DNA of 64,000 nt from Takakia lepidozioides (GCA_030704615.1 CM060732.1:4402001-4466000), one strand, 5' to 3'. Positions 1 through 54,929 are shown, counted from the stretch's first letter. The notes: generated by a model not told the origin, from the letters alone. Numbers and translations are program-made.

Positions 1-2385
1 ATTATGGTGGTCATTATATTTTAAATATATTAAAAAATCCAGCGACCGCCATACTATGGCAATCGCTTTAATTTTTTTTTTAAAAAAATACAGCGACTCC
101 CATAATATGGCGGTCACTTTATATTTAAAAAATAGTAATTTTTTTAAAAAACAATTCATTTCAGAAAATGCAGCGGCTGCCAGTAATGTCGGTCGTATTT
201 ATTATTTAAAATAGAGCGACCGCAATTATTGGCGGTCGCTTTTGTTTTTGTTTTTTTTAAATACAGAGACTGCCATTACTGGCGGTCGCTTGTATAATTT
301 TAATTAAAAAAAATGCAGCGACCGCCAGTAATGACGATCGCTTTTATTTTTTATTTTTTTAAATAGAGCGACCGCTATTATTGGTGGTCATTTAAAAAAT
401 AATAATAGACCGACCGCCATTATTGGCGGTCGCTTGTATATTTTTAGTTTCTAAGAATACAGTGACCGCCAGTTATGGCGGTCGCATTTTTTTAATAAAA
501 AAATAGATCGACCGCCATTATTGGCGGTCGATTTTATTTTTTAATTATTTTTAAATAGAGCGACGGCCTTTACTGACGGTCGCTTGTATATTTTTAGTCT
601 GTAAAAATGCTGTGACCGCCAGTTATGGCGGTCGTTTTTATTTTTTATTTTAAAAAAATAAAGTGACGGCCATTACTGGTGGTCGCTTGTATATTTTTAA
701 TTTTCTGAAAATGTTGCGACTACCAGTATTGGCGGGGGGTTTTTTTTTTTTAAAATTAAATTATATAATTAAATTATTATTAATTTAAATTATTTATTAA
801 TTTAATTTTTTTAAATAATACGACCGTCGTTACTGGCGGTCGCTTTTTTGTTGTTTTTTAAAAATGTAGTGACCGCCACCATGGCGGTCGCTTTTCTAAA
901 AGGTGTGCCTTACGCGTGGACCAAAGAATGAGAGGGGGGGGAGAGAGAGATAAGCCAAGGGAGACTCATTCTCCCCTCACTTCCTCTCCACACAACTTCT
1001 GTGCGACCGCCATTATTGGCGGTCGCTTTTGTTTATTATTTATTTTTAAATAGAGCGACGGCCATTACTAGCGATCACTTGTATATTTTTAATTTCTGAA
1101 AATGCTGCGACCACCAGTTATGCCGGTTGCTTTTATTTTTTAATTTCTTAAATAGAGCGACCGCCATTACTTGTAGTCGTTTGTATATTTATAATTTCCG
1201 AAAATATGGCGACTGTCAGTAATGGCGGTCGCTTTTGTTTTTTTTTGTTTTTTTTAATAGAGCGGCCGTCGTTACTGGCGGTCGCTTTTATTGTTTAATT
1301 TTTTAAATGTAGCGACCGCCATGAGGGCGGTCGTTTCTAGAAAGTGTGCCTTACGCGTGGACCAAGGAATGAAAAGGGGAGGGGGGGGGGCAGATAAGCC
1401 AAAGGAGGCTCATTCTCCCCTCACTTCCTCTCCACACAACTTATGTGCGACCGCCATTATTAGCGGTCGCTTTTGTTTTTGATTTATTTTTAAATTTAAC
1501 GACGGCCATTACTGACAGTCGCCTGTATATTTTTAATTTATGAAAATGCTGCGATCGCCAGTTATGGCGGTCGTTTTTTATTTTATTTTATTGCGATCGC
1601 CGTTACTGGTGGTCGCTTGTATATTTTTAATTTCTGAAAATGTTGCGACTGCCAGTTATGACGGTCGTTTTTTTTTTTTTTAATAGAGCGACCGTCATTA
1701 CCGGCGGTCGCTTTTATTGTTTAATTTTTTAAATAGAGCGACCGCCATTACTAGCGGTCGTTTTTTTTTTGTTTTTTAAAAATGTATCGACCGCCATGGT
1801 GGCAGTCGCTTCTAGAAGGTGTGTCTTACGTGTGGACCGAGGAATGACAAGTGGGGGTCAGATAAGCCAAGGGAGGCTCATTCTCCCCTCACTTCCTCTC
1901 CACACAACTTACGTGCGACTGCCATTATTGGCGGTCGCTTTTGTTTATTTATTTATTTATAAATAGAGCGACGGCCATTACTGGCGGTCGCTTGTATATT
2001 TGTAATTTCTGAAAATGTTGCAACTGCCAGTTGTGGCGGTCGTTTTTATTTTTCATTGCGACCGCCATTACTGGTGGTCGCTTATATATTTTTAATTTAT
2101 GAAAATGTTGCGACTGCCATTAATGGCGGTCATTTTATTATTATTTAATAGAGTGACCGTCGTTACTGGCGGTCGCTTTTATTGTTTAATTTTTTAAATA
2201 GAGCGACCGCCATTACTGGTAGTCGCTTTTTTGTTTGTTTTTTTAAATGTAGTGACCGCCATGGTGGCGGTTACTTCTAGAAGGTGTGCCTTACGCGTGG
2301 ACCGAGGAATGAGAGGGGGGTGGGGGCAGATATGCCAAGGGAGGCTCATTCTCCCCTCACTTCCTCTCCACACAACTTATGTGTG
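1..2385. repeat. Array of short palindromes (GCGACCGCC-N5-7-GGCGGTCGC) in AT-rich spacers, organised in ~440-480 bp higher-order units
   Basis: Dozens of gcgaccgcc...ggcggtcgc hairpins. A unique block (aggtgtgccttacgcgtggacc...ctcattctcccctcacttcctctccacacaactt) recurs at ~900, ~1343, ~1816 and ~2282. Probably DNA-transposon subterminal or foldback-type repeats; runs off the window start. Confidence 0.85.
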
Positions 2386-4309
2386 CATGACATGTAACTA
2401 TTCCACGACACGTACTCACGTGGAGAAGAAGGCCATTGGTTGGGGGGTTTTTTTTTGCCGCAATTTCTGTGAAGTCGTTGCAGATTGCTCCTATAGCCCG
2501 TCCTCTGGCTTCCGGGAACATTTCATTCTACAAAATTAGTTTTTAATAACTATTATGACACTTATTCAAACTCGTTTCGTCTTAAAGGTTTAGGGTCAAT
2601 TGTAATTTTTCGATCGAGATCGCAGTTCCTTAATTCTTAGTCATTTCTACGTTTGCTTCAGTAGTGTTTAACTTTCCGTTACTTATTAATAAACGTCGTT
2701 TAGGGTTGCTCCGATTGTTACAAAATGGACTGCCTCCTAAGAATGATGACGATGAGCGTCAGGGAAGAGATGACCCCTATGAACATGGACTGCCTCCTAA
2801 GAAAATCAAATGGTCAAGGCGTGACTTGAATTGGAAAGTATATGATGACCCTAGCATACTAGCAGAAGAGGGATGGGAGGATTTCCCGGAAGAGTTCAGG
2901 TGGCCGAGCACGAGATGCAAAAAATTCGTGAAATGGTGTCACATCAATCAATTGTGACCTAGACCTAGGCATGTGATGCAAACCAGAAACAATTGCGCGG
3001 ACTCCAGGTCTTGCATGAACTTGCATTTTCAGCATAGAGCGACTGAGGTGCATTGTACGTTGTGGGGTGAACCACTCTTAAAGGGCTAAATCTCGTACAC
3101 CTTGGCAGCCATGTTGTACGTGGAGGTAATACTGTTGCGTCCAGTGAATTGGCAACTACTAGTATGAGGAACGCAACGATGCAATACCATTTCGTCGACA
3201 TCCCGAACATGTTTGGAACACCCCCCAGTACGGATACTGGGCAAAAGGAGTGTAGGGGGTCCGCATCGGGCTAGTGCGCGAGGCCCCAGTACTCCAGGCT
3301 ATGATACTAGTGCGTGCAAACCATTATTTCGTCGACATCCCGAACATGTTTGGAACACCCCCAGCTACGATACTGGGCGTGCGCGAGGCCCCAGTACTCC
3401 AGGCTATGATACTAGGCGTGCCCGAGGCACCGGTGCAACAAGTATCTGGAACGTTAGAGGATGAACTGGTGGAAACAAAACAGCGAGTCCGAACCCTGCA
3501 GGACCTTGTGGTATAACAGACTGCGCATAGCCGAGTTGGAGGGTACATTGCAAAAAACGCCTCGAAACAATGAAGGTACTGTCCACAATAACGTTCGAAC
3601 GAACGACGTGGACATGTCCGCGGAGTTTATAATGCCAGATCGCAATATTGACCGCTTCATTGCCGGAATTACGGACGACTTTTGACCCTCGTCACGTCGT
3701 GAGATTCTGCAAGAAAGTCATCTTTCGCCGCAAAGTAAGCGGATGCTGGTCAGAATTGATCACATGTCATTGGGCCCATCATTGACCACGAGATCACGGT
3801 CCCAGGCTCTCCGTATTGGTAGTGCAAATCAGACCACAACATCACATCCCTTGTCCCCGGACAGTGACGACGAGGATTCGAATGAGTAGCAACGTAATAC
3901 ATAGACAATGTGGATTTTTGTTGTACCTTGAATTTCTGGAACACACTGATAGCACTCCGCCAATTTTGTATATGCACCAATTTTGTTAATACACATGTGC
4001 GGCACCTACAAATTTCAATTGCATGAACAACGTAACGGGTTTTCTTCCGGTTTTGCACTCATGTGATGTGGAAGAAGTGGTTCACCCTCAAATTTACAAT
4101 GGTATAATATTTGGTCATGACGTGTATGTGGGTATCTGCAATGAACTCCGAAAGATGGGCAACAAGGAAAATGGATGTTAACCAATAATGTATAACGAGT
4201 TACGAACGCTCGTCTTCCTGACAAATTTCGCCTAGTCTCGTATTTCATAATCATGTCGAAAATTCGATCTACGTATGAAGAACATACCCACAAAGTTAAC
4301 GAAACACAA

Positions 4310-7300
4310 TATAATTTTGATTGATCTCATATTACTCTGGGACCTGTCAGATGGTACATTGAACATACTGGCCAAGTCTCGAAGCGAACGAAATCATTTG
4401 GATAGGCAACCATCCGTTGGCCCATTGGACGAATTTCGTTTCATCTCATATTACTCTGGGACCTCTTAGATGGTACATCGAGCACACTAGCAAAGTCTGA
4501 AAACGAACCAAAATCGTTCAGATGGGCAACCATCCGTTCAGCCATCGAATGAATTTTGGATTGATTTCATATTAGTCCAGGACCTATGAGAAGGTGTACC
4601 AAACGTACTGGCAAAGTTTTTTTTTTTTTTAAATGATTTGGATGGGCAACCATCCGTTCAACCGTTGGATGAATTCCGTTTGATGTGCTATTACTCTCGG
4701 ACCTGTTGGACGGCATTTCGGGTGCACATGATTTTTTTTTCATTCCATTTTTTAGCCATATGTCTAATGACAGCATATGCGATGTGCATGCCAAATTTCA
4801 TAACGAACAAAAGTCATTAGGACCCAAAATCACAGTTTCTTCCCTAATTTGCACTCCGAACTTTGATTTGTTTTATAGTTCATGCACTCTTTATAGAGAG
4901 TTTTGCAATAGTGACCAAAGTGAACACTTAAAAAAAAAAAAACATTTTTGTTTGGTCCAAAATTTTGCAAGGATGTAGCAGTGGGAAGGTAGAAGCAAGA
5001 GAACAAGATTGAGCAAAAAATAAAATTGTTACAGAGCAGAAAACCCCAATCAAAGACAATGTAAACCTATTTATTTGCTTGAAATTCATTTAAATTCAAT
5101 TTAATTGAAAATTGGTGGAAGGGCGAGGGCGTAGTTTGGGAGGCAAATGTTTGTTTCTTCTATTGGTTCTCCGCACATGTGTTGCACACATATTCAAGCA
5201 CTTGCGGGCAAAAGATGCGCCTCAACATCATCCGTTCAATGGGTGCATTGGATGTCCACCCATGACATGATTTCTTTTTCGCAATGAAACAAAATGGATG
5301 ACACATGAATGCCGCATTGGCCCATTGAATGAATTTTGATTGATTTCATATTACTATGGGACCTATCAGATGGTACATTGGACATACTGGCCAAGTCTCG
5401 AAGCGAACGAAAATCATTTGGATGGGCAACGATCTGTTGGGCCATTTGACGAATTTCGTTTCATCTCATATTACTCTTGGACCTTTTACATGGTACATTG
5501 AGCACACTGGCAAAGTCTGAAAGCGAACCAAAATTATTCGGATGGGCAACCATCCGTTCAGGCATCGAATGAATTTTGATTGATCTCATATTAGTCCGAG
5601 ACCTGTGAGAGGGTGTACCGAACGTACTGACAAAGTATGAAAGCAAACAAAAATGATTTGGATGGGCAACCATCCGTTCAACCGTTGGATGAATTTCGTT
5701 TGATGTGCTATTACTCTGGGACCTGTTGGACGGCTTTTTGGGTGCACATGATTGTTTTTCATTCCGTTTTTTCAGCCATGTCTAATGACGGCATATGCAA
5801 CATGCGTGCCAAATTTCATAGCGAACAAAGTTATTAAGACCCAAAACCACAGTTGCTTCCCTAATTTGCACTCCAAACTTGATTTGACTTCTACCTCATG
5901 CACTCTTCATAGAGAGTTCTGCAATAGTGAACGAAGATGACATTTTTAGAAATTTTCATTTTTGTTTGGTCCAAAGTTTTGCAAGGATGTAGCGGTGGGA
6001 GGGTTGAATCCAAAGAACAAGATTGAGCCAAAAATAAATTGTTACGTAGCAGGAAACCCCAATCAAAGACAACGTAGACCTATTTATTTGCTTGAAATTT
6101 ATTTAAACTCAATTTAATTGCAAATTGGTGGAATGGCGAGGGCGTGGTTGGGGAGGCAAATCGTCAGTGACGTCACGTCACGTCGGACCTGACGCTGACG
6201 CGACCAACGTCACGTCAATTTTGCCGAAAAATCAGTAAAACATGAGTTAGGTGAAAAATATGTCACGTAGGTGGACACGATGTATTCCAAGCGACACCTT
6301 GGCAAGTGAATGAATTGTTTTATAAATTACTCCATCCGCCAATAGTTGAGGCCATTTTCAAATGATTATTCTTAAATTGGTGCGACCTCCAAATGGTGGT
6401 GGTCGCAGAATTTATCTTATTTTTTCATCGTTACGAAAATAGAAAATTTCTGCGACCACCACCATGCTGGTGGTCGCACACCTATTAAAAAAAATAAAAT
6501 GTTGGGACCACCCCCATGTTCGTGGACACAGAGATTTATTTTATTTTATTTTATTTTTTATTTTTTAAAAATAATTCTTCGACCATTCCCTTGTTGGTGG
6601 TCGCACCTATTAAAAAAACAGAAAAATGCTGCGACCACCCCCATGCTGGTGGTCGCAGATATTAAAAAATAGAAAAATGTTGCGACCACCCCCTTGATGG
6701 TGGTCGCACCTACAAAATAAAATAAAAATTGTGCGACCACGAGTAGCGGTGGTCGCAACTGTTTAAGAAAAGAAAAAAATGCGACCACCCCTGCTGGTGG
6801 TCGCATCTGTTTTTAAAAAACAAAAAATGATGCGACAACCCCTCTGCTAGTGTTGCTTCTATTGTTTCTCCGCACATATGTTGCACACATATTCCAGTTT
6901 ATGCGGGCAAAAGATGGGCCTCAACCTCATCCGTTCAATGGGTGTATTGGCCGTTCATCCATGACATGATTGTTTTTTCGCAATGAACAAAATTGGATGA
7001 CATGTGAACGCCTCATTGGGCTATTGAGCAAATTTAGATTGATTTCATATTACACTGGGACCTGTCAGATGGTACATTGAACATACTGGCCAAGTCTCGA
7101 AGCGAACAAAAATCATTTGGATAGGCAACCATCCGTTGGTCCATTGGACGAATTTCATTTCATCTCATATTACTCTAGGACCTCTTAGATAGTACATTGA
7201 GCACACTGGCAAAGTCTGAAAGCGAACCAAAATTGTTCGGATGTGCAACCATCTGTTCAGCCATCGAATGAATTTCGATTGATCTCATATTAGTCCGGGA

Positions 7301-9625
7301 CCTGTGAGAGGGTGTACCGAACGTACTGACAAAGTTTGAAAGCAAACAAAAATGATTTGGATGGGCAACCATCCGTTCAACCGTTGGATGAATTTCATTT
7401 GATGTGCTATTACTCTCGGACCTGATGGACGGCGCACATGATTTTTTTTCATTCCATTTTTCCAGCCATGTCTAATGACGACATATGCAAGGTGCGTGCC
7501 AAATTTCATAGCGAACAAAAATCATTAAGACCCAAAACCACAGTTTCTTCCCTAATTTGCACTCCAAACTTGATTTGTCTTCTATTTCATACACTCTTCA
7601 TAGAGAGTTGTGTAAGAGAGAGCGAAGAGAACACTTTTAGAAAATTTTCATTTTTGGTGGTCCAAATTTTGTAGGGATGTAGCGGTGGGAGGGTTGAAGC
7701 CGGAAAACAAGATTAAGCCAAAAATAAAACCGTTACGGAGCAGAAAATCCCAATCAAAGACAATGTAAACCTATTTATTTGCTTGAAATTCACTTAAACG
7801 TAATTTAGTTGTAAATTGGTGGAAAGGCTAGGGCATGGTTGGGGAGGCAAATGTTTGTTGTTTCTCTTGTTGCTCCGCATATGTGTTGCACACATATTCA
7901 AGCACATGCGGGCAAAAGATGGGCCTCAACCTCTTCCGTTCAATGGGTGTATTGGCCGTTCACTCATGACAGGATTTTTTTTTCGCAATGAACAAAATTG
8001 GATGACACATGAACGCCTCATTGGCCCATTGAATGAATTTCGATTGATCTCATATTACTCTGGGACGTGCCAGATGGTACATTGGACATATTGGCCAAGT
8101 CTCGAAGCGAACGAAAATCATTTGGATGGGCAACGATCTGTTGGCCCATTTGACAAATTTAATTTCATCTCATATTACTCTGGGACCTCTTATATGGTAC
8201 ATTGAGCACACTGGCAAAGTCTGAAAGCGAACCAAAATTGTTCGGATGGGCAACCATCCGTTCAACCATCGAAAAATGATTGGATGGATAACCATCCGTT
8301 CAACCGTTGGATGAATTTCGTTTGATGTGCTATTACTCTAGGACCTGTTGGACGGCGTTTCGGGTGCACATGATTTTTTTTTCATTCCATTTTTCTAGCC
8401 ATATGTCTAATGACGGCATATGCAACGTGCGTGCCAAATTTCATAGCGAACAAATGTCACTAGGACCCAAAACCACAATTTATTCCCTAATTTGCACTCC
8501 AAACTTGATTTAACTTCTACTTCATGCACTCTTCATAGAGAGTTTAGCAATAGTGAGCGAAGAGGACACTTTTAGAAATTGTCATTTTTGTTTGGTCCAA
8601 AGTTTTGCAAGGATGTAACAGTGGGAGAGTTGTCAGAGAACAAGATTGAGCCAAAAATAAAATTGTTACGTAGCAGGAAACCCCAATCAAAGACAGTGTA
8701 AACCTATTTATTTGCTTGAAATATATTTAAACTCAATTTAATTGTAAATTGGTGGAAGGGCGAGGGCGTGGTTGGGGAGGCAAATGTTTGTTGCTTCTCT
8801 TGTTTCTCCGCACAAGCATATGTGGGCAAAAGATGGGCCTCAACCTCATCCGTTCAATGGGTGCATAACCCGTTCACCCACGACAGGATTTCTTTATCGC
8901 AATGAACAAAATTGAATGACACGTGAACGCCTCATTGGCCCATTGAACGAATTTCGATTGATCTCATATTACTCTGGAACCTCTTGAACACACTTGCAAA
9001 GTCTGAAAGCGAACCAGAATCATTTGGATGGGCAACCATCTGTTCAGCCATCTAATGAATTTTGTTTTATCTCATATTAGTCCGGGACCTGATACATGGT
9101 ATGTTGAACATAGTGGCAAAGTTTGAAAGCAAACAAAAATCATTTGGATGGTCAACCATTCGACTGCCATTCTTTTTCGCAATGAGCCAAACTTCATGAT
9201 AGGTGAACGCGTCGTTGGCCCATTGAACGAATTTCGTTTCATCTTATATTACGCATGGACCTGTGAGACGTTAAACTGAATACGTTGCGGAAGTTTCGAA
9301 GTGAACAAAAATCATTTGGATGGGCATCTATCCGTTGGCCCATCAAACAAATTTCGTTTCATCTCATATTACATTGGGACCCGTCTTATGGTATATTGAA
9401 CATACTGGCAAAGTTTGAAAGCAAACCAAACTCATCTGGATGGGCAACCGTCCGTTGGGCTATTGAACGAATTTCGATTGATGTCATACTCCTACGGGAC
9501 CTGTGAGACGGCGTACTGAACATACCGGCAAAATTTGAAAGGAAACAAAAATCATTCAGATGGCCAACCATCTGTTGTCCAATCGAATGAATTTCGTTTC
9601 ATCTCGTATGACTCCTGGACCTGTT
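4310..9625. repeat. Higher-order satellite: ~1.0-kb units, each with several ~120-bp subrepeats plus a unique block; about 5 copies
   Basis: Unit start (ttgatctcatattactctgggacctgtcagatggtacattg) recurs at ~4321, ~5340, ~7040, ~8044 and ~8957. The ~120-bp subunit contains ggatgggcaaccatccgtt. Confidence 0.9.
6162..6850. mobile_element. ~690-bp insertion in one satellite unit; transposon-end-like fragment with ACGT-rich tip and GCGACCACC..GGTGGTCGC palindromes
   Basis: The satellite reads gggaggcaaatgtttgttgcttct in other units. Here it breaks after gggaggcaaat (6161) and resumes at tgttgcttct (~6851). Confidence 0.7.
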
Positions 9626-9975
9626 GGGATAAGCCACACGGTGGCAATGACAATTGGAGATCGAAGGGAGGGCCTTCGCACGCCAGGGCGGCACCCGGTG
9701 CTCCGAAAGGAAAAATAGGTGCGACGGCACACGACTGGCAGAAGGCGACCTTTGATGGGGTGTACTTTAATTGCGGAGAGACTAGGCCCATTGTTCCGTT
9801 TTCCTAAGGCAAGGATGGAATGGGCTCAGAAAATTGTAACGAAACCCCGACAGTTGAACATGACAACGGTGACCACGGAGCTTTCTGAAGACTCCATCAA
9901 CCGCTTGGTGGAGGCAGTGGTCGCCAAGATTTTGCAAGGTAGACGACTACATGTGTGAGCTGTTCCAAGAGGCTG
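9625..9975 (+). pseudogene. Possible degenerate retrotransposon gag fragment (zinc-knuckle remnant)
   Basis: GVYFNCGETRP..P resembles a decayed CFNCGxxGHxxxxCP knuckle, preceded by a Gly/Arg-rich stretch. Confidence 0.35.
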
Positions 9976-9980
9976 GAGCA

Positions 9981-10160
9981 TCACGTAGCGGAAGCCGCTT
10001 CATGTTCATAAGTAGCAAAATTTTCGAAACTATCGTATCGTTGTCGTATAGGCGGTCGATTCATTTTAAATCACGTAGCGGAAGCCGCTTCATGTTCATA
10101 AGTAGCAAAATTTTCGAAACTATCGTATCGTTGTCGTATAGGCGGTCGATTCATTTTAAA
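9981..10160. repeat. Exact 90-bp tandem duplication
   Basis: 9981-10070 is identical to 10071-10160 (tcacgtagcggaagcc...tcattttaaa). Confidence 0.95.
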
Positions 10161-10164
10161 AAAA

Positions 10165-11550
10165 GACAAAAAGAGGCGATCATTATTGGGCGGTCGCATC
10201 ATCTTTTATAAATACCAAAAAGAGCGACCACCATATGGTGGTCGTTTCATTTAAAACAAATTCCTAAAAGAGCGACCGCCGTATTGGCGGTCGCTTCAGT
10301 TTTTTTAAAAGCGAGAAAGAGCGACCGCCATCGGGCGGTCGCTTCATTTTTTTAAGAAATTAAAAATAATTTTTTTTAAATTTAAAAAAAAAAGGAGCAA
10401 CGATGGCGGTCGCTTCATTTTTTTAAGAAATTAAAAATATTTTTTTTTTAAATTTAAAAAAAAAAGGAGCAACCGCTGTATTGGCGGTCGCTTCACTTTC
10501 TTAAAAAGCGAAGAAGAGCGACCGCCGTATGGCGATCGCTTCATTTTTTTATTATTAAAAAACTTATTTAATTTATTAATTTATTTAAAAAAAACCTTAA
10601 ATGAGCGACCGTCGTACTGGCGGTCGCTTCAGTTTTTTAAAAAGCGAAAAAGAGCGACCCCCATATGGCGGTCGCTTCATTTTTAAAATAAATAAACGAA
10701 ATGAGCGACCACCGTAGTGGCGGTCGCTTCATTTTTTATAAAAAAAGAAAAGAGCGACCGCCGCATTGGCGGTCCCTTCATTATTTAAAAAAACAAAAAA
10801 GAGCGACCGCCGTATTGGCGGTTGTTTCATATATATATTTTTAAAAAGAGCGATTACCGTAGTTGCAGTCGCTTCATTTAAATTTCTTAAAAAAAAGAGC
10901 CACTGCCGCTAAATTTAAAAAAACAAAACTAGCGACCGCCATTTGGCGATCCGCTGCATTTTTAAAAAAAAATTAAAGAAGCGACGGTTTGGCGGTCGTT
11001 TCATTTTAGAATAAAAATAAAAATATGCGACGGCCGGCGAATGGCGGTCGCTGTTTTTTTTTAAATATTTTTTAAACTGCGAACGACTTCCAATCCGGGC
11101 GGTCGCTTAATTTTGAAAACTAATAATTTTCAAGCGACCGCCAATATAGGCCGTTGCTTAATTTAAACTATAATAAATTGCAAGTGACCGCCAATATTGG
11201 CGGTCGCTCCATTTAAAACTTCATAAATTACCGGCAACCGCCAATATAGACCGTCGCTTAATTTAATAAAATATTAAATTATAAGCGACCGCCAATATGG
11301 GTGGCCGCTTGATTTAAAAAATAATAACTTGTAAGCGTCCGTATTTTTGGGCGGAGGTATGTTTTAAAATAAATTTTAATAATTGGCCACGTCTATTTCA
11401 CACCGTGGCTGCCATGTCATTACAAGAGGTAGAAGTAAATCGTAAAAGTCAAATATTAAAAAACAAATACTTGGATAAACGTCTGGATTCGACGTGATGT
11501 GACGCACGTCCGACGTGACGTCTGACGTGTCCGGGCCACGTTATGTCAGG
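10165..11550. repeat. Second GCGACCGCC/GGCGGTCGC palindrome array ending in an ACGT-rich tip
   Basis: Same palindrome core as 1-2385. The tip at 11490-11530 (gtccgacgtgacgt) is the reverse complement of acgtcacgtcggac at ~6175-6188. Confidence 0.85.
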
Positions 11551-12844
11551 AATGATAACTAGGGCAGATGTTACACATTAAATCTTATGGACTGAAAAAA
11601 CATCATGTACACTCATACACTGGCACAAACGAAAACACACTAGGGGTTCCATTTTTAAATCCAACCCAAATCCATTTTTATATGGACTAGTTATCTTAGG
11701 AATTGAGAGCTATGGACTATTTTGCACACAAAAACATGTTGATTTGCTCTAGTCCATAGCATCTTATGTTTTGGGTTTTTGAGGTGTCGTCTTTTTAAAG
11801 ATTAAAAACAATCCTGCAACTGCCCTCAAAGAAGAACTTCGCTTCAGAGGAAGCCATCTTGCCTCCTCTCGTACGAAGATGCCTTGCTATCGCAGCTCTT
11901 CAGTGAAATCTGTTGACTGAGGTTTCCAAAACACTGTTGAAGAATGAGCAGAGAATATCGCGGAGAAAGTATACACGATGATTGTGCACATTCTGTTAGT
12001 CCTTGCCTCTGGCAAGTTCTTCCAGACATGCAACCGTCTATTTTAATTACTTTTTTTATGGGCCTTGTAGACAGAGTACCCTAGGAGCAATTTCGGTAGC
12101 TGTTAAAACTTTATTCAGAACCTCATCAATTAACATAATAACCAGCCGACTTCTCAGAAGTGTGCCAAAGGATCTGAGGGTGGGATAGCAAATGAAGTAA
12201 ATGCATCTTTATAACAGTATCATTGATCACGCGCACCTGGAAAGTCCAAATTGTGAAACGAACGTGGGGTGGGCTTACAAGGATGAATGTGTATGATATC
12301 CAGAAATTTGTCATCAAACACTCGTTCATTTACATTTATTTGTCTGAGATTGTGCGCCAGATGGCCCCATATTTTTTATTCCATAGTGTCATGGTTCTGA
12401 TGGCATAGGCATTGTCTGAGGCTGAGCAGTCAAACTAGCTAATTTTTTTTATATGCAATGTTATATTCAACTATAATATCTGTCGCTGTTATATTCAATT
12501 ATTGAAACCGTTCAAATAAACGTCACGCCGTTCATTTTGGGCGACACACGTCAGACATCGATAACTACATTGCAGACGAACAGCTGTCCACTAATGGCTG
12601 GCAGGTGCACTAATAAGGGAATGACATTTGTGTAACGGTCACGCAAGAGGGAATCCGATGCTTCTAGAGACAATCCCCAATGCACGCAACTCTGTAAGAA
12701 ATCGAGAATCACTTTGTCTTTCTTGTTTCCGTACTTAGAGGGAGAGAGGTAGTCAAGCTGGAGAGGGTTCCTTCTACGATACGAAAAAAAAGGAAGTCAC
12801 TTTATTTTACTTCCCTTAGAGAGAGACTCAGAGCAAGAGAGCAA

Positions 12845-15800
12845 ATGACGAGGCGTCGTTTGATGGAGAACACAGGGCCACGGCAGCAGGTGAACGCGGA
12901 GACTGCAACACAAGAGCGGACCGAGAATGAGGCTGCAGCTGTCACACAGTCAGAGGGAGCAGTGAGCGTTGGAAACCAGACTGTGGAAGCAGAGATGATT
13001 CGCAAGGAAACTGAAGGAGGTGGAAGTCCGGGGAACGCAGAAACGGGAGAAGGTCTATAAACCCTAGAGCAGACAGAAATTCCGACCGATGTGAGGGGGA
13101 AGAGGAAAGCTGCAGAAGGGGATCCAAACTCAAAATTGAAAAAGGCGCCAGTAAGTGTTCTCTACCTTCCATTGCCTGTTTACAGATCTACGAAGTGAGT
13201 GAGTGAAATGTCCTAGAAAACGATGGTCGGTACCGACCATCACTATGAAGTCATGTTGATTTGTTTTGTACTTCTCTGTTTATGGTTTTCCATACCAGCA
13301 GTTTGTGACTGGCGGTACCGCCATTCACTGTTCTTCAGATCATAGAGTCAGTCTGATTGCCTTTCCAACACTCTTTCTCTTTCATTCTGTAGCAGGAACC
13401 TGTGATTGTTGGTAACGTCATTTTCTTTCTTTTCAAAACTCTCATTCTGATACAACAGAAAGTGAGTGTCGGTGCCAACAGTAACTATGATCCAGTATAG
13501 ACTTACACCAAATATAATGCTTTCCATTCTAGTGTAGTGTGAGTGTCGTTAACGCCATTTGATTCTCCTCATGAGCTTCATGTACCTGTATGCGTGGAGA
13601 GAGAGTGATGGTCGGCATATTCAGTCATATTGTCTTGCATTGCATTTTCTCTGTTTCAGGTTGAACAGATTAGGGAAGAGGAATGGCGGTACCGCCAATC
13701 ACTTTTCTTGAGACCATACTGTAGCTTCATGTCTAAAAACGATTGCAAAGTACATTCCAAACAGACAAGAAATAGTGATTGTTTGTAACGATCATCACAA
13801 TGGAGTCTCTCTGACTTATGTGCACTCACTTTCTGCCCTAAACTAAAATGAGTGTCAGTGCCGCCAATCACTATGAGATATATTTCCTTGCACCAAACCA
13901 ATCTTGTAGGTCCTTCAAATGTAATGTTTTTTTATTGTCGTTAACGCCGTTCGCTGATGCTCAGAACCTCTCTGTACCTGCTTGCCCAGAAACATAGTGA
14001 TTGTCGGTACCGACCATCACTATGTAGTCATAGTGTTCTGGTTTGCATTCGTCTGTATCAGCTTTGTTTGTGTAGATGGTTGTGAATGTCGGTGCCGCCA
14101 TTCACTGTGATTTGAGACAAGACAGACTGATGGTCGGTACCGACATTCACTATTTGCACATAACTCAGTGTCTGATTGGCATGGCATCGTGCAGAAAACT
14201 GTGAAGTCCAAGCAGATAGGAACAGAGGAAAAATGTTCTGGAGATGGGGACAAGTCTGCCAAGAGCTCGGAGAATAGCGATGAAGCAGATGAACCTGAAG
14301 TGCACTACCTTGACAAGGTGAAAGAACTCATGTCATTCCAGAAGGTAAACTCTCAGGAGGTTATTAGGGACATGCTCGTCTCTGGAGGGCATCTGGACAT
14401 CCCACTATGTCGGATGATATCTATGTCTGTTGTGCGTCCTCCTCTTTCCCATGACATTACAAAATTGGAAACTGATTTCGTGCATGGATACAAACTTGGT
14501 GCACAAGTTCTTTATGTGTCACTGACGGATACAAATGGGAAAAGCACATTAGTGTCTCTTGAGATCACATATACCTGGGATGAGTGCTGGAAGGATGTTA
14601 ATGAGGAGTTCGAGCTGGGCCTCATGATGGGGAGAAACACCCAACAATTCTGCAACCACATGTTCTACGTCTGGGACGGCAACCACCGATTGCTGGCATG
14701 GATGGGATACATTCATAAACATCATTCAAAAGATAAAGACAAGCATGTTGCTGTAGAGGCAATGGTTCTGGATCCTGGAAACGACATCGCTAGGCTTCTT
14801 ACAGCTATGCACGACGTGAACAAGTAAGTCATCCTAGAGACTCCATTGCCTCTCCAATGTCTTGTTGATCCCACCAAAAACCGATGTTTACCAATGCATT
14901 GTTTCCAATCTTTTTGCAGATCGACAGAGAAATCGCATGTGACAACAAGCTTGGTCCACACACTGTTCTGAATTCAGAGGACTGGTCTGATGAAGTTGGA
15001 TGATTTTTGCACAATACTCCACCCCGATATAATCAAGAAGTGCGAAACAGGAAGAGCTGTAGGCACTTGATATTCTTTGATTCGAGAGGCGTTTCTGGAG
15101 TACATATATGCGGTAAGGCCGAGCCTGTACTCACTTGCCTTTTTGAATACATGTTTGTAATTCGTTTTTACTCATCCCTACTTTGATCAATGCAGCAAGA
15201 ACTAGCAGAGGCAGCTGAGAAGGGGAAATCCGAATACTACCGCACTACAACAGAGGAACTTAGGACATCAAAGGGTGTGGAGGCAGCAATGAAGAAGAAG
15301 TATGAAATTCGGAGAACCAAACTGATGTCCGCCTTCTCTGGGCAGTACCCAGACAATCCTTATGTACTTCCACTCCTATTGGTGCTAACTTCTCAGTTCA
15401 AAACACAGCTGAATCGATCAGAGATAGAAAGAAAGATGCCTCATACCTGCAACTCGTCTAGGCATTGGGTGCGTGGTGGAGAGGATTGAGAACTTGGCTT
15501 ACGCCCTAAACAGAAGTAGGAGAAAGGGGATAGCGACGTGACAATAAGGATCAGCTCTGCCACAAGCTTAGAATAGTAGATCCTAGCCTTGGAGAGGAGT
15601 TCCTTCTGCAGATCAAATCTCACTATGACAAGCACGTGCACCCGGAGATGCAACAAGAGAAATTGCACAGGCTGGCCATCTCCATGGTTGACCCCCAAAT
15701 CAAAATTAGATGGCTGGAGATTTGGAACTCAGATCAGACAGTGAAGGACTTGAATCAGTTCCCTAATAGCACTATACAGCCTGGCACAAAGGTGGAGGGA

Positions 15801-18650
15801 ATCAGTGACATTGTGTTTGACAACTGGCTTCACAAGGCCACATTTTGGAGTCAGGTGTGTATTCATTGAAGTTTCATCTTTGTTGACTTCATGAATGTAA
15901 TGACTACCTTATTTGCAAAACTAACAAATGTACCTTTTGCAGCTGGAGAAGCGCGCCATCCTTGTCCTCGAGCAGAATTTGAAGGACTTGAATATTTCTA
16001 TTGTTTCCCCACCTCAAATGACTTCACTGATATGAAGTGAATGTCGGTGCCGACATTCACTTCCATGACTGTGAGCTCTTATGGACAAAGATTTCATTCA
16101 CTTGGATTAGGGAACTTAGGGTGTGTTGGCAGTGTTCTTGAATGGAATTTTGTGACTGTCGTTGACGACCATCGCATCCAAAGCTAGTATGAGCTTCTAT
16201 ACCGAGAGATTTCTTGTACATTTTCTAGGGTGCCCAATAGTTCTATGTAGTGTTTCTCTCATGAATTTTTGAATGTCGGTACCGACATTCACTTTGAGTT
16301 GATTTCCAGTTTGTCTCGTGGTTCACAGGTACACAAAATATGTGCTAATGGATGGAAATCACCTCAGTGGTGTCCCAAATTATCTTGACATGTGGTCGGA
16401 CCCGGGAAACGATCCAACCATGTATACTGCAGGGATATCAAAGGACTGGAGTCCTGCACACTTCAGGGACTGTGGTTGGTACCTGGACTGCCCTCCTGAG
16501 CACACGACTTTCCAAGAGCAGCAAATGAAATATTTGAACAATCATGCTGAGATGCTGGCACCTTTGAATGATGAGGAGTACCAAAGAAACATAGCAGCAC
16601 TGGTTGCCAAGGAGCCTGACGCTCAGGAAATAGCCCAAAAGGGCAAGAAGGGTGGGCGCAAACCCAAAGACAAGGCTGCAGATGGCACAGCCAAGTCACC
16701 AGCAAAGACAAAGGACAAAGACAAGTCGAAGGAGAAGGAGAAGGAAAAGGAGAAGGGGAAGGAGAAAGAAAAGGAGAAGGAGAAAGAGCAGGAGAGTGAG
16801 AAGGACTTCACCGCCGAAAGGTATACCCGCACAATTGAGTGCGTGTTCGATGCCAGGCCACACCCTTCCCGTGCTGATTCTGCAAGGGAGATTAAGATTG
16901 TCAATGAGGGATGTCTGGCGATGATGGAGAGTCGGAAGAAAGGATACACCGGGGGTGCCTTCGCCTGTTGGGACAACATGATCCCATTCCTCAATCTGGT
17001 GGGAATTTAACTTTCTTTCCTTTGCATTCGTAGGTGACATTGGCAGTATTGGTATTTGTTTCTTTGCAGTCATTATTCTCTTCGTTCTCAAATTGAACAT
17101 ATCTGTCGCAGGTGAGCACTGGTCCCTCCTTCGTGTGCGGTGTGCAGAAAACGTTTGCTGCAGACATGGTCATTCTTGACATCCCGGACGGCCAGGCTAT
17201 GCCAGACGTTCTTCCGAAGGGCAAGACGCCAAGCTGGAACAAATACGATGACAACTACTAGAGTTGGGTGTTCGGGTTCTGCAACTATTTCCTTTATGAT
17301 GCAGGGACATTTCTACTCTTTTAGTCATGTGACAAGGATAGTCGTCAGGCATTGGCATCGTACCTGAAGTCCTCTGGGTTTGAAATTCTGCGCACATGGA
17401 ATTGTGTGAACATCCTCTACCTTGTGAAAGGGGGTTGTCCTGGTCAGCTGGTATGATGCCTCCCTCTTAGGTGTGCTTTGTTGCTTTATTTCAATGTATT
17501 CTACAGTGTAACTCTACAATAATCTGTGATGATCGGCACCGATCATCAGACTTGACTGATCAGTTTGTTGCATGCCTATGTTTTGAAGTGCCAATCTACA
17601 AAATTCCACTGTTGTTTATGTTTTGCACCCTAACCTCCTGTCTTTCGCAGACGAGGATGTTCGAGGCGATCTGCCTACGGAGGATTCGCACCTCAAAGAC
17701 ACCATCCTCCGTTCGCAGCTTCGAGATTTCTGACCAAGGGAGTTTCATCAATCCCCCGTATGAGCCGCATGTCGATGACATTTTGTACAACTTCATGCAG
17801 CCAACTCAGACTCTCAAAAAACCAGATGGCACTCCCTGGAGAGGTGCAAAGGAAAAAACCCCAACGTTTATGCAGACACTGCTAGAGTCATGCAACCACC
17901 ATTCTGCACGGGTGGTCGACCTCTCGGTATCCACAAGTTCATTTTCTCACTTCAGATTTTGTTTTCTTTCACCATTTTCATCTTCGTTAATCCCCCCCCT
18001 ACAAGCTGTTCATGTCCTCCTGCCTATTGCAGGAGGAACTTACCATGCGTGCAAGGCAGGCGGCAGATCCTTTTTTGGCATGGAGGGTGACTCTGACCTA
18101 TACAAGACTGTGCTCCTCCCCCTTTTGTCTGGCTCTACATCAGGCACACAAACTGAAACGATTCAAATCCGAAATGGGATAAGCAGGTCCACAACGATTT
18201 TTCATGTGAGTAAGTTTGCAATGGAATTATCATTCCACTTTGGCTGCCCTTTTCAATCGCAGACATCAAATTTGCAGTAATAACGTATTTCTTGCTGTGA
18301 CTTGCAGGAAAAACAGCGGTGGATCTTCAGGAGACACACCCATTTGTGGCGAGACTGTTTTCGACAGCCCCTTTCCACTTTTGTGCTTCATGTGTATGCC
18401 GAAGCAATAACACCTCAAATGGCCGAGGCTCTCTCCCCTGACTTTTTATTGCCCGACCGCAGGTGTAGCCATCGTAGATCCGGAGTTCTAAAATACTTGG
18501 ACTTGGATGCAGAGGACGCGGGGATAGATTGTACTGACTCTGAGTCAGACTGAACTACGCATTTTTAATGTTCATTTCTCATCATCTTTGTAAAATATTG
18601 AATTCCCCTACTTTATTGCAGATGTTCCGGCAGAAAGAAAAAGGAACAAA
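12845..18650 (+). pseudogene. Multi-exon gene encoding a ParB/Srx-like N-terminal domain, a KE-rich linker and a beta-class N6A/N4C DNA methyltransferase-like C-terminal domain; disrupted by stops
   Basis: Exon ~14195-14823 has FYVWDGNHRLLAW (ParB/Srx DGxHR motif). Exon ~17112-17450 has ADMVILDIPDG (motif IV position), FLYDAGTFLLF and GFEILRTWNCVN. Exons ~17651-17936 and 18033+ give PWRGAKEKTPTFMQTLLE..RVVDLSVST/GTYHACKAGGRSFFGMEGD (motifs X-I-II). GT-AG splice sites at 13151, 14824, 15112 and 17451. In-frame stops at ~13058, ~17259 and ~17321. Confidence 0.7.
13221..17550. repeat. Dispersed ~24-bp palindrome GTGA(A/T)TG(T/G)CGGTACCG(A/C)CATTCAC, ~17 copies, all in predicted introns
   Basis: Copies near 13221, 13304, 13461, 13539, 13680, 13775, 13849, 13997, 14082, 14127, 16037, 16152, 16270 and 17527. 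Confidence 0.8.
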
Positions 18651-19229
18651 TAATCCACTCAGAATGAAATGACAATCTTCATGAATCCATCCCACAACCA
18701 CCACAACCTCATGTCAAAGCCATTGTGCATTCATCTACACTGTATTCATGCATCCTCCATTCATAAATATTTTCCATTATTCAACATCCATTGTACATTC
18801 ATCCACTGCACTCTCGAATCCATCTTACAAACCCTCACACTCATGTCATATACATTGTGCATTCATGTACTGTGTATGAATGCATCCTCCATTCATGAAT
18901 GTTTTCCATTGTTCAACATCCATTGTACATTCATCAATTATACATTCATCCGTTGAAATCTCATCCATCTATATTTCATCCATTTGCTTGCATTGTTCGC
19001 ACCCATCCATCAATGTTTCATCCACGCTACATTCATCCATACCGCATTCATCTTTTGCTTTCATGTGGGAATGACCACATCCTTTTATCATGTCGTCCAA
19101 CTTGTTACCGCGGTTAAGGGTGCTCTTCCGCGGAAATACACTCCGCTTCTTCCTTGGCGCGTGATGACGTGGAGTGAGATTGGTGATGTGGCGTGGGCGC
19201 AGCTGCGCTCACGCGACTAGGCTCACGCC

Positions 19230-27421: not shown

Positions 27422-28615
27422 CTAGGACCTCTGTCTCACTCGCCTGCCACTGGCATCCGTCCCATCACAGAGCTGGCCCCATACACTTCTATTCCGAATA
27501 GATCCTCCTCCAGCATCCTCATAGACTCCAGCAACTGTTTTCAGCAACTCAGACTGCAAAGAGGGACAGCTTTCTCGGAGGTACTCAAACCCATCTGAGT
27601 GCATGACTGCTGCAAGATTCGATGCAGCAAACTTCAGACACACTGCCTTGAGTTCTGACGCATGATGCTGCTCTGCAAGAGCAAGTGTGGTAGCCACTGT
27701 ATCAGTGCTCACATTCTCGCATAACTTCGACTCACAAAGAAGGCGTAGCCGGTCGAGACCATACCGATCTGCTGCTGCCAGTAGATGTTGAGCCAGAAGA
27801 GTGGACGAACATGATCCTGCCAAATCGTTGGTGTCAGGAAGGGCATCTGTATATACGAAATGCAGCAGCGCCTTGAATACGGGTGCCTCAATGTCTTCAA
27901 TTTGAAGGTTGCCGCTATTACGGTCACGCATGGGCCCAAACAATTGGGCTTTAAAGACAGGCGACCGTGCAGCCAACACCAGCTTGTGTGCATGAAATAC
28001 GTCCCCATCTACCTCAAATGTCACATCAGTGTCCTCTCCGCTTTCCAACAACGCCCCAAAATGCTGACCAAGGTCCGGTTCGGGGACTGGAATTGTGTAG
28101 AGTTTCGGACCTTGTGTGGACGACACAACCACACCCACTGTGCAAGTAATCGCGAGGCTATCATTCTTTAAGAAATCTGAAGTTTCCAGAACAGCGCGCC
28201 TAAAAAACCGCTTGTAGCCCCACATGCTGCCCCTATACTTGAGGGTATAAGGACCACTTTCAAGCGACCGATCAAAGTGACTGTGCACCTTATGCTTGGC
28301 CTTCCCACTCTGATCCAACAGCGTTAACTCAAACAACGCTCGGACATCTGTGCCCTCACTTGCTAAAGCTATGAAAACCGACACATACAGAGAATTGTCC
28401 TCTGCGTTCTTCCCATCAGGGTAAAAATAGATGGCCCACTGGTATCCCCCAACAGTAAAGCTCTCACTGGCGATGTACTTCCCAACCCCCATGCCCTTTG
28501 CAAGAGAATAGCCATTGATGGTGAAATGATGCGAACCGTTCACAGTTTCTGTCACACACCGTGACCGCGAATTTGTACTACCGCTGCCTGTGCAGGCCAT
28601 GGGCGTCCGGGCCAT
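27422..28615 (-). CDS. BPM: BTB/POZ-MATH domain protein (CUL3 substrate adaptor), intronless
   Basis: Intact 397-aa ORF. MATH domain ([29 protein letters not shown]...[11 protein letters not shown]...[10 protein letters not shown]), BTB domain ([25 protein letters not shown]), BACK-like region and C-terminal GRRVRQR NLS typical of plant BPMs. Confidence 0.97.
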
Positions 28616-29159
28616 CAGAAGCTCTCTGCTTCATCCCCTGCTTCCCTTCCTGCCCACTCTTCAATCTTCTCCCAGATTCCGCACCCTGATCGCTGCAACC
28701 CACTGATGCAGAAAACCCTTGTGGGCAAGTCTGCAGCACTGCTCTCCCCGTAAAGCATCTCTGACGGAGCTGGAGCCTCCCTTCCTCCCCTCACCTGCCT
28801 CTCACCGTCCTTCTTACTAGTATCTTCTTACCACCTACTAATAATCCCAACCACTATACTTAATTAGGTCCCGGCTGCAATGGACGATTTAGCCATGGCT
28901 AAGTCAGGTTTAGCCATGGCTCAGTTTATGTAGCTGCCGCAGTGGACGATTTAGCCACTGTTAAAGTTAGTCAGCACTAATCGTCGCTAACTACCCCCCA
29001 GTATTTGTCCTACGAGATAACCCCTACCCACCCCCCACGTACTAACTAACCAGGGGGGCAGCATATGGAAAATTCCAACACTCCCCGTTCTACGTCCTTC
29101 CTCGCGCCTGGCTTCTCTCATATTGTAAGCCACAAAAGAACCGCTAGCCCAACAGTCTT

Positions 29160-33239: not shown

Positions 33240-34829
33240 GGGGCTGCATCCCTGGATAGTATGAGAGCACTGGAAGACTGGCTTGCGTTTTGGCACTTCC
33301 GGTACAGGCAGTGGGGAGCATGCATGACAACGGTACGTTGCTTTTGTTGCATGCAAATTTTGGATGCTTTGTCTCCCTTTTTTCCATCATTGTTGTGGAA
33401 GGGTCTACTCGTCCTCCTTTCTGAAGTGTGTTTTCCCATTCTGCATCACATGTCCTTTGAGGAAATGGCGGACATGCCATCTTGCAATCTGGCGGAGATA
33501 GTGCACAATGCATGATTGCAACAATCTGGAAAACGGGGAAGAGATTTGTATGTGGCGACGACCGACGACCTGACGCGTGCTCTACAGCAACAAACCAGGT
33601 ACCGGGAGTTTTTGCGGGGTGAGGTTGGTAGCAAGGGTCCAAACAAAAATGAGTTGATGTTGCGAGCTGCAAGAAGATCAGGGGATCCGAGCAAGATTGC
33701 CAGGGCGGTGAGCCTGTATGCCGATGGAACCCCTCTCTTGTCTATAGTTCCACATCTGGAAGGCGATGAGAGATTCGGCTCTTGCAAGCAAAAATTGAAC
33801 ACTCCACCTGGTTCGGATGCGGATTTGCACAGGGCAGACCGAGACAACTTCTCCACACCACGTATTCCCTTGCATCATAGATCCGTATCCGGAACCACCA
33901 CTGCGGAGGAATCTTCGTCACGACGCCAAGCCCCTACATCTCCCTCTGTCAATGCAATGGTGCAGGAAAATAACATGCTCCCCGATGTGGTGGAGTCCGT
34001 GTGCCCCGACGACGTTTGGTACATGGAACGCACCGGTGCTGGGTCTCGAGTGCAATGTACGGCGATCAGGGCCACCACTTTCGAGAAGTGCACGTCCTTC
34101 ATATCGAGAGGCGGTGCCCGGACTCCGGCTCCAACTTTCACTGGTTTGTTCCACCCATACGGGCAACCAGAGGCCAAGAACCACAAATTCTGGTTCTGCG
34201 CTGACGACTGTGGTAGATGCGTGCGCGGAACAGTGCGACCATCGGTGGTCTTGAAGCCTGCTCCACTAAGCGTTTGGCCTGTGAAGGTGGGGACAAGTCT
34301 CTCAGCTCAAGAGATTGCAATGCTGGAGGATGAATGCTTCTCCCTTGAAAAGCAACCCACTGTGCGTGCAGGTGCTTCGAGTTCTGCAAGTTCTCGAGTG
34401 CCTCCAGCAGATACTCATTTGTGGCCAACTAGACGGAATGGAAAGCTGGTTCGGGGTTTCCCTCCAACTGTTGAACACTTCGGCAAGGTGGAATCAGCAA
34501 GAATGCTTCAAGCTCGTGTTGCAGGCACTACAGAAGTTCCTGATCCGGGGTATGGTCAGGTCTACACAATGATGACATCGACATCTGCTCTGCAGGACAA
34601 ATCTTATGACATCACTATCTCAAATTTCCCCGATTGCACCTGTCCAGACTTTGTTGGCATGCTTTCAACAAGTTTGGGAAAGAGAAGAAAATTCATTCCG
34701 TGCAAATATCTATATTTCATCTTTTTGAAAATGATGGTTTGTGATCCCAAGCGGGACATCTTCATCCACCAGGCCACTATGAGTTTCAACGAGGTGAATA
34801 CACTCTTGCAGCGGGATACAAGCACATAG
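33240..34829 (+). pseudogene. C-terminal half of a Mutator-like DDE transposase with SWIM zinc finger
   Basis: [13 protein letters not shown], then an intron, then PSCNLAEIVHNA (catalytic-E motif TNxxExxH). C-terminal PDCTCPDF...IPCKYLYFIF is a SWIM finger (CxC..CxH, with H replaced by Y). Homologous to 44620-46000 (-). Confidence 0.7.
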
Positions 34830-35772
34830 GTAGCATCCACTTCCGCTGTCCATGAATCTGGAATTTCCAAGCCAGGTTTCCATATGCAACACATCGTCAA
34901 GTACTATGTCCCTCGGTTTATGTCCTCCCAGTGGGGTCATCAATCATGTTGTGTAGAGTCTGCAATTTGTTGCATGTATTCATCCAGCAATAAAATGTAT
35001 TGGATGCAAATGGTTTGTCACTTCATTTGTACTGGTAGTTGTTGAAGAGTCTTCCAAACACTTAAGCTGAGAAGCCAACTCTCATTTTGAAGGTGTGCAA
35101 GAATAAAGTCCTCACACATCCGCCACTCCTAGCTATGAAGGCAAAGCTGACGCGTACGAGTGGTGGCACTTTAAGACTCCCTCTCAAATCCTTTAACCCT
35201 GTAGTGCAAGATGTGAATATGAAAGGCCAGGTGTCCAGCCATTTGTCATTTGTGGTTCTCAGGTTCAATGTGTTCATGAACGAATCCCGCGGTTATAGGA
35301 CCCTCGGTTATGGGCGCCCTATGTTTCTGCTGATGTGGCGATGGTTGTCCTAGTGCCATGTCAGCATACCCAGACCACCTCAACATGCTCACGCCACCTG
35401 GCATGACCGTACGCTCACGCCATATCACCTGGCGTGAGCGTAGGCTCAAGCCACATCACCATTGTGTGAGCGTACGCTCACACGCTTACGCGCGGCGCTC
35501 ACGCCGTTGCGTCATTGGCCAGTCATGTAGAGGCGTATTCTTATATTATTTCCAACAGTCGAGAATTTACACATAAGCGATTGAAACAGACAGTACAACT
35601 TTCCGTTTATGTAAAGAGGCATTTTTAACTCGACCTGATAGCTATGATCGCCAATATCGCTTTTTTGTTGATTGATGTGGAGAGAGACATTGGACAATTG
35701 ACATCACAAATTCTCCAGTGTGGGCCAGAAATGACCAGTGTATAAAATACAATCAAACTCAGGATGCACATT

Positions 35773-50324: not shown

Positions 50325-50482
50325 ACTGAAGGCAAAGCAATTCCTGTAAGCCCTCAGGAACCGCCGTATACGTCGTCTCTCTCCTCCGGTGACAATGGGT
50401 CCAATGTCAGGCTCCCAATTGTCCTCCGTAACTGCAACCTTAAGTCCAGTGGGCTTAGAGGTAGAGGACGCGTCCGTGGTTG

Positions 50483-54651: not shown

Positions 54652-54929
54652 CCGGTCATGAACATGTCCCTAACCCCCTCTCCACAAGGTAACCGGGTAG
54701 AGAACCTGTTGCGGCTTATGGTTTGGAATACTAAGTTCCTAACATAGCCTACACCTGAACTTGCATGACCATGGGAATATCATGAAGATACTCCTCAAAC
54801 CGCCCTCCATGAGCTTCAAAATTCGGCCTTCCAGACCACTGCCAGTCCTTAGTCCACCAGTGCCTCCACGAGTCAGCACAAGCCATCCACAGGTCAACAC
54901 GGGCCACCACAGACCAGCACAGGCCCACA

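Follow-up and report, generated by a model that had tools for sequence, protein, structure and literature searches.

A plus-strand gene at 12845-18553 was studied in a 64,000-nt stretch of Takakia lepidozioides DNA (GCA_030704615.1 CM060732.1:4402001-4466000; hereafter the window, meaning the whole stretch analyzed). It encodes a ParB/sulfiredoxin fold, a helical middle, a K/E-rich linker and a beta-class amino-methyltransferase-like (hereafter methylase-like) domain, and the locus is almost certainly a pseudogene of a real ParB-methylase fusion family. The explanation we lean towards is that the window holds a broken spliced fusion, whose intact members likely serve large DNA transposons as accessory proteins; these would probably bind the element that carries them, and likely shield it instead of adding methyl groups.

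Gene Structure

Exon bounds were placed at candidate GT-AG splice sites, giving 11 exons, A-K (Table 1), or about ten if the D/E junction, which lacks a canonical donor, holds no intron, as it may; nine introns were counted. All motifs quoted by the initial annotation were present in the window sequence, with VVDLSVST (17912-17935) followed by a 96-nt phase-1 intron and then by GTYHACKAGGRSFFGMEGD. Since exon A is not conserved in relatives, its membership was inferred from position and phase. The gene end was put at the stop codon at 18551-18553 with some uncertainty, and an acceptor at 18621 could add a short last exon reaching 18650.

Table 1. Positions of the exons, intronic palindromes and a neighboring reading in the window.
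Feature	Position	Strand	Remarks
Exon A	12845-13150	+	Start codon, low-complexity N-terminus; premature stop 13058-13060; GT donor at 13151
Exon B	14195-14823	+	ParB/sulfiredoxin fold; DGNHR 14675-14689; stop-free; phase-2 intron common to L081
Exon C	14920-15112	+	Helical, 3′ of ParB; premature stops 14969, 15068; collinear in L003, L004
Exon D	15196-15345	+	Charged helical stretch; 15346 not a canonical donor, leaving 3′ boundary uncertain
Exon E	15397-15854	+	Conserved middle domain, IVDPSLG ... FWSQ; frame of first ~55 codons uncertain, three stops
Exon F	15943-16036	+	Shorter than in relatives; frameshift near 15976, from comparison with L004, L081
Exon G	16329-16998	+	Conserved aromatic-rich region, then K/E-rich linker; 34% to L004; aligned to L081
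Exon H	17112-17450	+	Methylase-like, motif IV region; DIPDG 17178-17192; premature stops 17259, 17322
Exon I	17651-17936	+	Variable region, motif X, motif I start; phase-1 intron inside motif I, common to L081
Exon J	18033-18205	+	Motif I end, motif II with acidic residue retained
Exon K	18308-18553	+	C-terminal tail; matches last L081 exon (56 aa at 30%, E 0.002)
Palindrome, seven copies	13222-14148	.	Intron 1; 20-24 bp, GGTACC-like hexamer center
Palindrome, two more copies	16039-16290	.	Intron between exons F and G
Possible head-to-head gene remnant	11690-12270	-	Translation; stop-poor reading facing away from the gene

The proposal that these exons form one intron-containing gene was borne out by relatives. 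The intact locus L081 has seven exons that splice to a stop-free reading of 1136 aa. Of 972 residues aligned with the window model, 290 (30%) are identical, and three of the six L081 introns fall at the same column and phase, one of them inside motif I. Annotated proteins also combine the two parts: in Riccia P0168 (1207 aa) the ParB part and the methylase domain occur together, both domains are likewise present in P0188 (1244 aa), P0190, P0191 and P0196, and Adiantum (fern) P0112 has the ParB part together with the motif IV region. The intact L081 with its common introns and the annotated fusions in Riccia and Adiantum indicate a single gene, and the alternative that the exons belong to separate genes was rejected. 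One ~1100-aa protein with ParB-like and N4-cytosine/N6-adenine (N4C/N6A)-methylase-like domains was found in L081, P0168 and P0188. In L004, one of four further genomic loci (L001-L004), the ParB, middle and methylase exons follow the order of the window gene; P0001 reads through the exon B/C junction without an intron, and the ParB part is present in Ceratodon. Exon E was 36-43% identical to L003/L004 and 33% to L081, with which it has a phase-0 intron in common, and exon H aligned with Riccia, Adiantum, L004 and L081.

L081 (G001, contig C58) is 4.7 kb long, holds a plant-type gene of seven exons and lies in a cyanobacterial genome bin, likely as bin contamination. That it is a bacterial relative was rejected, given its six GT-AG introns, three of them at window positions, and its being the sole match in the bin. 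L081 is most likely mis-binned plant DNA. A further short locus, L082 (18 residues), was left aside.

ParB-Like Domain

No single window exon matched PF01555 or PF02195 in Pfam, or a relevant PHROG, so both domain calls required other tests. Exon B, folded with 126 sequences, gave a model with a predicted local distance difference test score (pLDDT) of 94.1, and comparison by VIA with 7bm8_A (Caulobacter ParB) gave Z 9.0 and a root-mean-square deviation of 2.1 Å over 93 aligned residues, bearing out the ParB fold proposed from the sequence. When the 185 Foldseek matches were re-checked by VIA, the top 13 rows were all ParB/Noc/KorB/PadC. The top PDB rows of Foldseek itself were Noc, PadC, ParB and sulfiredoxin, with weak E-values, and its viral rows were mostly ParB-like.

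The box II phosphate motif GxxR, as defined in bioRxiv 10.1101/2025.10.10.680097, is present in window exon B as GNHR. In the ParB alignment, G130 was conserved in 100/113 rows, N131 in 110/113, H132 in 102/113 and R133 in 90/111. An upstream arginine (89/107 rows) and a terminal asparagine (74/86 rows) were also conserved and may correspond to ParB boxes I and III. The 126 ParB-part members matched 32 Pfam families at E<=0.1; PF02195 was not among the 25 of these listed, and DndB and DUF1015 appeared only weakly. Atlas clusters named ParB/Srx scored 0.92-0.94 with the ParB exon. Among the Atlas neighbors of window 14291-14821 are also clusters of fungal DUF3723 (score 0.94; 31% of members carry the family), hinting that DUF3723 may have a ParB-like part. 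The region after exon B was helical in a low-confidence model (4 sequences, pLDDT 32).

Methylase-Like Domain

A beta-class profile was made from 75 fetched viral loci related to E. coli YhdJ, of which 33 non-redundant proteins were kept. The spliced stretch 17112-17450 + 17651-17936 + 18033-18205, with X at stops, scored 19.1 bits in one collinear alignment to profile positions 28-238 of 270, with the motifs in the order IV ... X-I-II, and exon H by itself scored 12.5 bits. The maximum among 2000 shuffles (1331 scored) was 5.8 bits and the reversed sequence gave -2.1. When 2112 six-frame tiles of the window were scored, the top 8 all overlapped methylase exons and the best other tile reached 3.7 bits. 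With these controls far below the spliced score, chance motifs were rejected, and the beta-class homology claimed at the outset was upheld. The hhalign comparison of three family sequences with the profile gave 93.5% (0.8% for the best of 30 column-shuffled controls), and a profile-profile comparison including the Riccia set gave 97.4%.

In Riccia, all ten best Atlas family matches of the P0169 domain carried PF01555, P0168 matched PF01555 at E 5e-5, and a Pfam match to this family was obtained for 11 of 25 proteins (3/5 and 8/20). L081, scanned exon by exon in Pfam, gave no PF01555 match. Sequence searches of the PDB returned nothing significant. Between them, the profile and structure searches recovered a ParB fold and beta-class methylase homology, so the refuting outcome named in the initial annotation did not arise. 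UniRef labels Riccia P0166, P0168, P0169 and others 'Trimethylguanosine synthase', a name that fits ill with their PF01555 homology.

Catalytic Motifs

Motif IV could be read 24 times among 26 family sequences, and 23 of these readings had no aromatic residue as in DPPY. Motif IV is D(L/M/I)P(S/T/I)G in the 21 Riccia readings, DIPD in the window copy and DVPE in L081; only the fern, with DVPF, fits the canonical (D/N/S)-x-P-(Y/F/W). The aspartate and the second proline were retained in 24/24. The aromatic was found in 31 of the 33 viral references, a count that reflects a pattern requiring it. Because six of the 33 have DLPY, DIPY or DVPY, a hydrophobic second residue is harmless alone, and only the loss of the aromatic is unusual. 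The aromatic is expected to stack on the flipped base and to be required for catalysis. At motif I, which binds S-adenosylmethionine (SAM), Riccia DFAGGWG fits FxGxG, and the window and L081 have a divergent loop, D(L/I)(S/T)(V/A)ST, L081 reading DITASTG where the window reads DLSVST. The acidic residue of motif II is retained. The TSPPY motif of MpDN4MT1-type N4C methylases was not found in the family.

The initial annotation had described these motifs as altered and eroded. The changes were confirmed, but since the intact L081 reads DVPE and DITASTG, they are a family-wide trait and not decay of the window copy. Across the alignments, the ParB site is conserved while the methylase site is remodelled in lineage-specific ways. 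We class the methylase part, on its motifs, as a homologue and not as a canonical enzyme; it is probably no longer a normal enzyme, and the balance tips towards a loss of canonical methylase activity in most members.

Relatives and Age of the Family

A profile search of 1.84 billion representatives with the ParB part returned 911 clusters, defined at 50% identity, with E<=0.001, and 408 when the threshold was 1e-10. Of 20 representatives looked up, 8 carried a species name, the others being environmental fragments; the named members were the liverwort Riccia sorocarpa, the fern Adiantum nelumboides and the moss Ceratodon purpureus. Riccia had 20 gene models over 8 assembly sequences, many of them partial, and Ceratodon had two models on one 110-Mb sequence. 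The predicted gene family is thus real, large and multi-copy. The median pairwise identity of the ParB part was 31%, and 52 of the 87 rows reaching the end of exon B stopped <=2 residues from the exon end, indicating an old intron after the ParB exon. A quick tree, from which 58/126 rows were omitted because of their coverage and to which 5 from Riccia were added, placed Riccia in one group (10 rows, support 99) and grouped the window copy weakly with a Ceratodon row; no strongly supported group included the window copy.

Short-pattern scans, which miss distant kin, found no related stretch among viral contigs (0/27 and 0/18 candidates) and no true relative among prokaryotic GTDB genomes (0/38, then 2/42 candidates). 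A tblastn search of phages gave no relative and one match at E=7, and a word-based homologue search with the unspliced methylase stretch gave 0/1133 candidates. The gene had been called horizontally derived and intronised; the introns are plain to see, but direct transfer from prokaryotes is not supported, with no prokaryotic or viral relative found at the sequence level in these searches.

Decay of the Window Copy and Other Loci

The window copy carries five firm premature stops (13058, 14969, 15068, 17259 and 17322), three further stops in a stretch of uncertain frame at the start of exon E, and one frameshift with sequence loss near 15976. It is therefore a pseudogene, as the stops noted earlier had suggested, and is dead, with no function of its own. 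Degradation was seen in 5/6 genomic loci examined, namely the window and L001-L004, of which L001 and L002 are near-identical. In the L004 exons, observed/expected CpG was 0.06 and CHG 0.14 (window copy, 0.55 and 1.21), an extreme depletion expected from long methylation-driven decay. The gene in L003 is interrupted by a 1.06-kb insertion (3650-4712), a small mobile piece moved into a neighbor; its sequence matches a stretch 5′ of the L004 gene at 96% identity.

Palindromes, Flanks and Transposon Carriage

The palindrome of Table 1 had 9 matches window-wide, all inside the introns of the gene, where 0.81 were expected, and 0/100 shuffles reached 9; a tenth copy, at 17528 between exons H and I, has diverged. 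Upstream of the L081 gene, four copies of a different palindrome were found. The palindromes are tentative candidates for the binding sites of the protein.

At window 1-2300, 6380-6850 and 10141-11341, 50-bp units bearing a GCGACCGCC...GGCGGTCGC palindrome are repeated in arrays, the outer two being mutually inverted and enclosing 120-bp repeats; they are probably nested non-autonomous DNA elements. A half-site of their palindrome resembles a half-site of the intronic palindrome of the gene. A link between the gene and either the 1-11341 repeat arrays or the presumed SWIM-like open reading frame (ORF) at 33516 was considered and gained no support.

The gene is likely a transposon accessory gene. 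Transposon-like behavior is indicated by the 911 clusters, the scattered partial Riccia models, the Ceratodon pair and the degraded L001-L004. The initial annotation had called the gene transposon-borne: the multi-copy family stands, but since no transposase or element ends were found, the carriage itself is inferred. No terminal repeats joining the flanks of the gene were found, and the sequence shared by L003 and L004 breaks off sharply 1.3 kb past the methylase exons. The 11690-12270 reading gave no Pfam match and no match in L001, L003, L004 or L081.

Proposed Function and Alternative Explanations

Under the shielding explanation, the ParB domain would bind a nucleoside triphosphate (NTP) at GxxR and act as a switch or clamp, and the protein would load on palindromes of its own element. 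The methylase-like domain would bind DNA, and perhaps SAM; without the base-stacking aromatic it would methylate weakly or not at all, and it would protect the element from host silencing or aid the transposase.

Several observations weigh against this explanation. The Foldseek support for the ParB fold was weak (best E 5e-3, TM-score about 0.4), the methylase parts of the more decayed L003 and L004 alone scored below zero on the beta-class profile, and only 1/25 Riccia proteins reached the PF01555 cut-off (gathering score 26.7). Such palindromes number 69 in the window overall, mostly elsewhere than in the gene, and further palindrome arrays are frequent there; L001, L003 and L004 have 1, 5 and 2 scattered ones with no comparable array, and the palindromes of the window and L081 differ in sequence. 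Neither the surroundings of the window copy, where the flanks were partly scanned, nor the 4.7-kb L081 contig revealed a transposase, terminal repeats or a target-site duplication. Some members may also be active, as the fern DVPF and the Riccia DFAGGWG suggest.

These last motifs, with the motif IV aspartate and second proline in 24/24 readings and the retained acid of motif II, would fit another explanation, in which intact members methylate N6-adenine or N4-cytosine through a non-canonical but active domain and so mark the transposon that carries them, guided or licensed by the ParB switch, a model proposed for algal proteins (PMC12477816; bioRxiv 10.1101/2025.02.11.637652). We regard it as rather unlikely, because the aromatic is missing from 23/24 readings and present in 31/33 viral references, selected by a pattern that required it, and because the SAM loop of the moss-type clade is divergent. 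A fuller form of this idea is an old, very large family of moss, liverwort and fern transposon proteins that work like ParB/parS, in which an NTP-gated clamp on the element's own palindromes would spread a non-canonical methylase writing N4-methylcytosine (4mC) or N6-methyladenine (6mA) as a self-mark against silencing; this we think distinctly improbable.

The ancient intron after the ParB exon (52/87 rows), the intact L081 and the single Riccia group of the quick tree (support 99), as expected under vertical descent, are consistent with domestication of the family as host genes in seed-free plants, where they would act in development as the Marchantia sperm methylases do, with the window copy as a dead paralogue. 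The extreme diversity (median identity 31%, 911 clusters, many partial models), the degradation of 5/6 loci and the missing TSPPY motif make such a family quite improbable. Least credible, with only a very slim chance, is a viral origin, the gene being left over from an endogenous giant virus or from other viral DNA that had integrated: phages are enriched in fusions of ParB with N6/N4-methylases (bioRxiv 10.1101/2025.10.10.680097), giant-virus ParB proteins are among the Foldseek matches and giant-virus insertions are reported in a moss, but no relative was found in the viral contigs or phage records scanned, the gene has nine introns, and no viral genes were seen among the flanking ORFs scanned.

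The contrast between a conserved ParB site and an altered methylase motif raises the question of whether these proteins write a mark, read a mark or merely occupy DNA. Self-marking is directly testable, because genetic models (Ceratodon, Riccia, ferns), the intact L081, full-length Riccia proteins and a candidate palindrome are at hand. The family is also a caution that a 4mC/6mA-methylase-like match in a bryophyte genome need not be a sperm enzyme of the Marchantia type.

Other Features of the Window

Mobile sequence is abundant in the plant DNA of the window, which includes ORFs of Gypsy type, one BTB-MATH ORF and a fragment of a PPR gene. A Gypsy-type retroelement lies at 50483-53656 (-), with 47913-50519 and 53212-54669, and its 1057-aa ORF has a C5 cytosine methylase domain (PF00145, E 2e-12) downstream of a protease-like region. 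The adjoining ORF at 47351-48010 ends in a Cys/His pattern that we take to be PHD-finger-like. At 27422-28630 (-), an open intronless 402-aa MATH-BTB-BACK frame stands amid retroelements and is possibly a retrocopy of a BPM gene. The 437-aa ORF at 33516-34829 (+) has a CxCxxF...C pattern, presumably SWIM-like, and no Pfam match; it adjoins palindromic repeats at 35395-35481, and a similar GC-rich palindrome lies at 19188-19217. Several Cys/His-rich ORF pieces at 58273-60600 (-), with no significant Pfam match, are possibly a degraded transposase-related gene.

Comparison with Known Systems

The literature covered, which includes few subscription journals, gave no report of the family in bryophytes or ferns. 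The word 'plant' does not occur in the ParB-fold preprint (10.1101/2025.10.10.680097), and no land-plant ParB fusion is listed in the available parts of Iyer et al. 2016, which cover few of its 390 ParB places (PMC4738411).

Fusions of ParB_N and N6_N4_Mtase are known from phages and prophages (bioRxiv 10.1101/2025.10.10.680097; PMC4738411). The window family resembles them in domain pair, domain order and the GxxR phosphate motif, but differs in that its domains stand ~500 residues further apart, its genes have introns and the motif IV aromatic is absent; a sequence match to these fusions was not detectable. The NTP partner of a ParB protein is not predictable from sequence (bioRxiv 10.1101/2025.10.10.680097).

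Beta-class amino-methylase homology in eukaryotes is known from the liverwort proteins MpDN4MT1a/b of Marchantia (bioRxiv 10.1101/2021.02.12.428880) and from bdelloid N4CMT (PMC8885841). The parallel to Marchantia drawn by the initial annotation holds for this homology only, as the enzymes are different: MpDN4MT1 has TSPPY, is active and is encoded by two tandem host genes, whereas the window family has no TSPPY, is multi-copy and is mostly broken. The DIRS1 retrotransposons also carry an N6A-methylase domain with substituted catalytic residues, proposed to bind and not to methylate, but that methylase is of Group 2 and PCIF1-related, without a ParB domain and in a retroelement (PMC4738411).

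Closer parallels come from algal DNA transposons. Red-algal Plavaka elements carry the passengers PAG2 (PF01555 + SET) and PAG3 (ParB-like + 2-oxoglutarate oxygenase), and Plavaka accessory genes switch between transposon classes (bioRxiv 10.1101/2025.02.11.637652). As in the window family, the two domain types travel as transposon passengers in mostly degenerate copies, and inverted-repeat arrays adjoin the ParB-like gene (bioRxiv 10.1101/2025.02.11.637652, Bostrychia preprint); the domains there are in separate genes, each fused elsewhere, whereas in the window family they are fused to one another and the palindromes are intronic. The 21.5-kb Sola1-1_Ec32 transposon of Ectocarpus has an accessory gene for a 1104-aa ParB + N4C/N6A-methylase protein, which is proposed to bind and modify its own element (PMC12477816). 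Unlike the window gene, for which no transposase was identified, that gene lies in a defined element on the strand opposite to the transposase. The two were likened by domain description, as single proteins of ~1100 aa in which a ParB-like domain is joined to a methylase part; for the algal protein, the predicted product is 4mC or 6mA. Land plants are not named in the parts of that source available. The ParB-methylase architecture has thus already been described for algal transposons, and the land-plant members appear to be new; self-marking by such proteins, proposed for algae and untried in those texts, is an idea that the present family extends into land plants.

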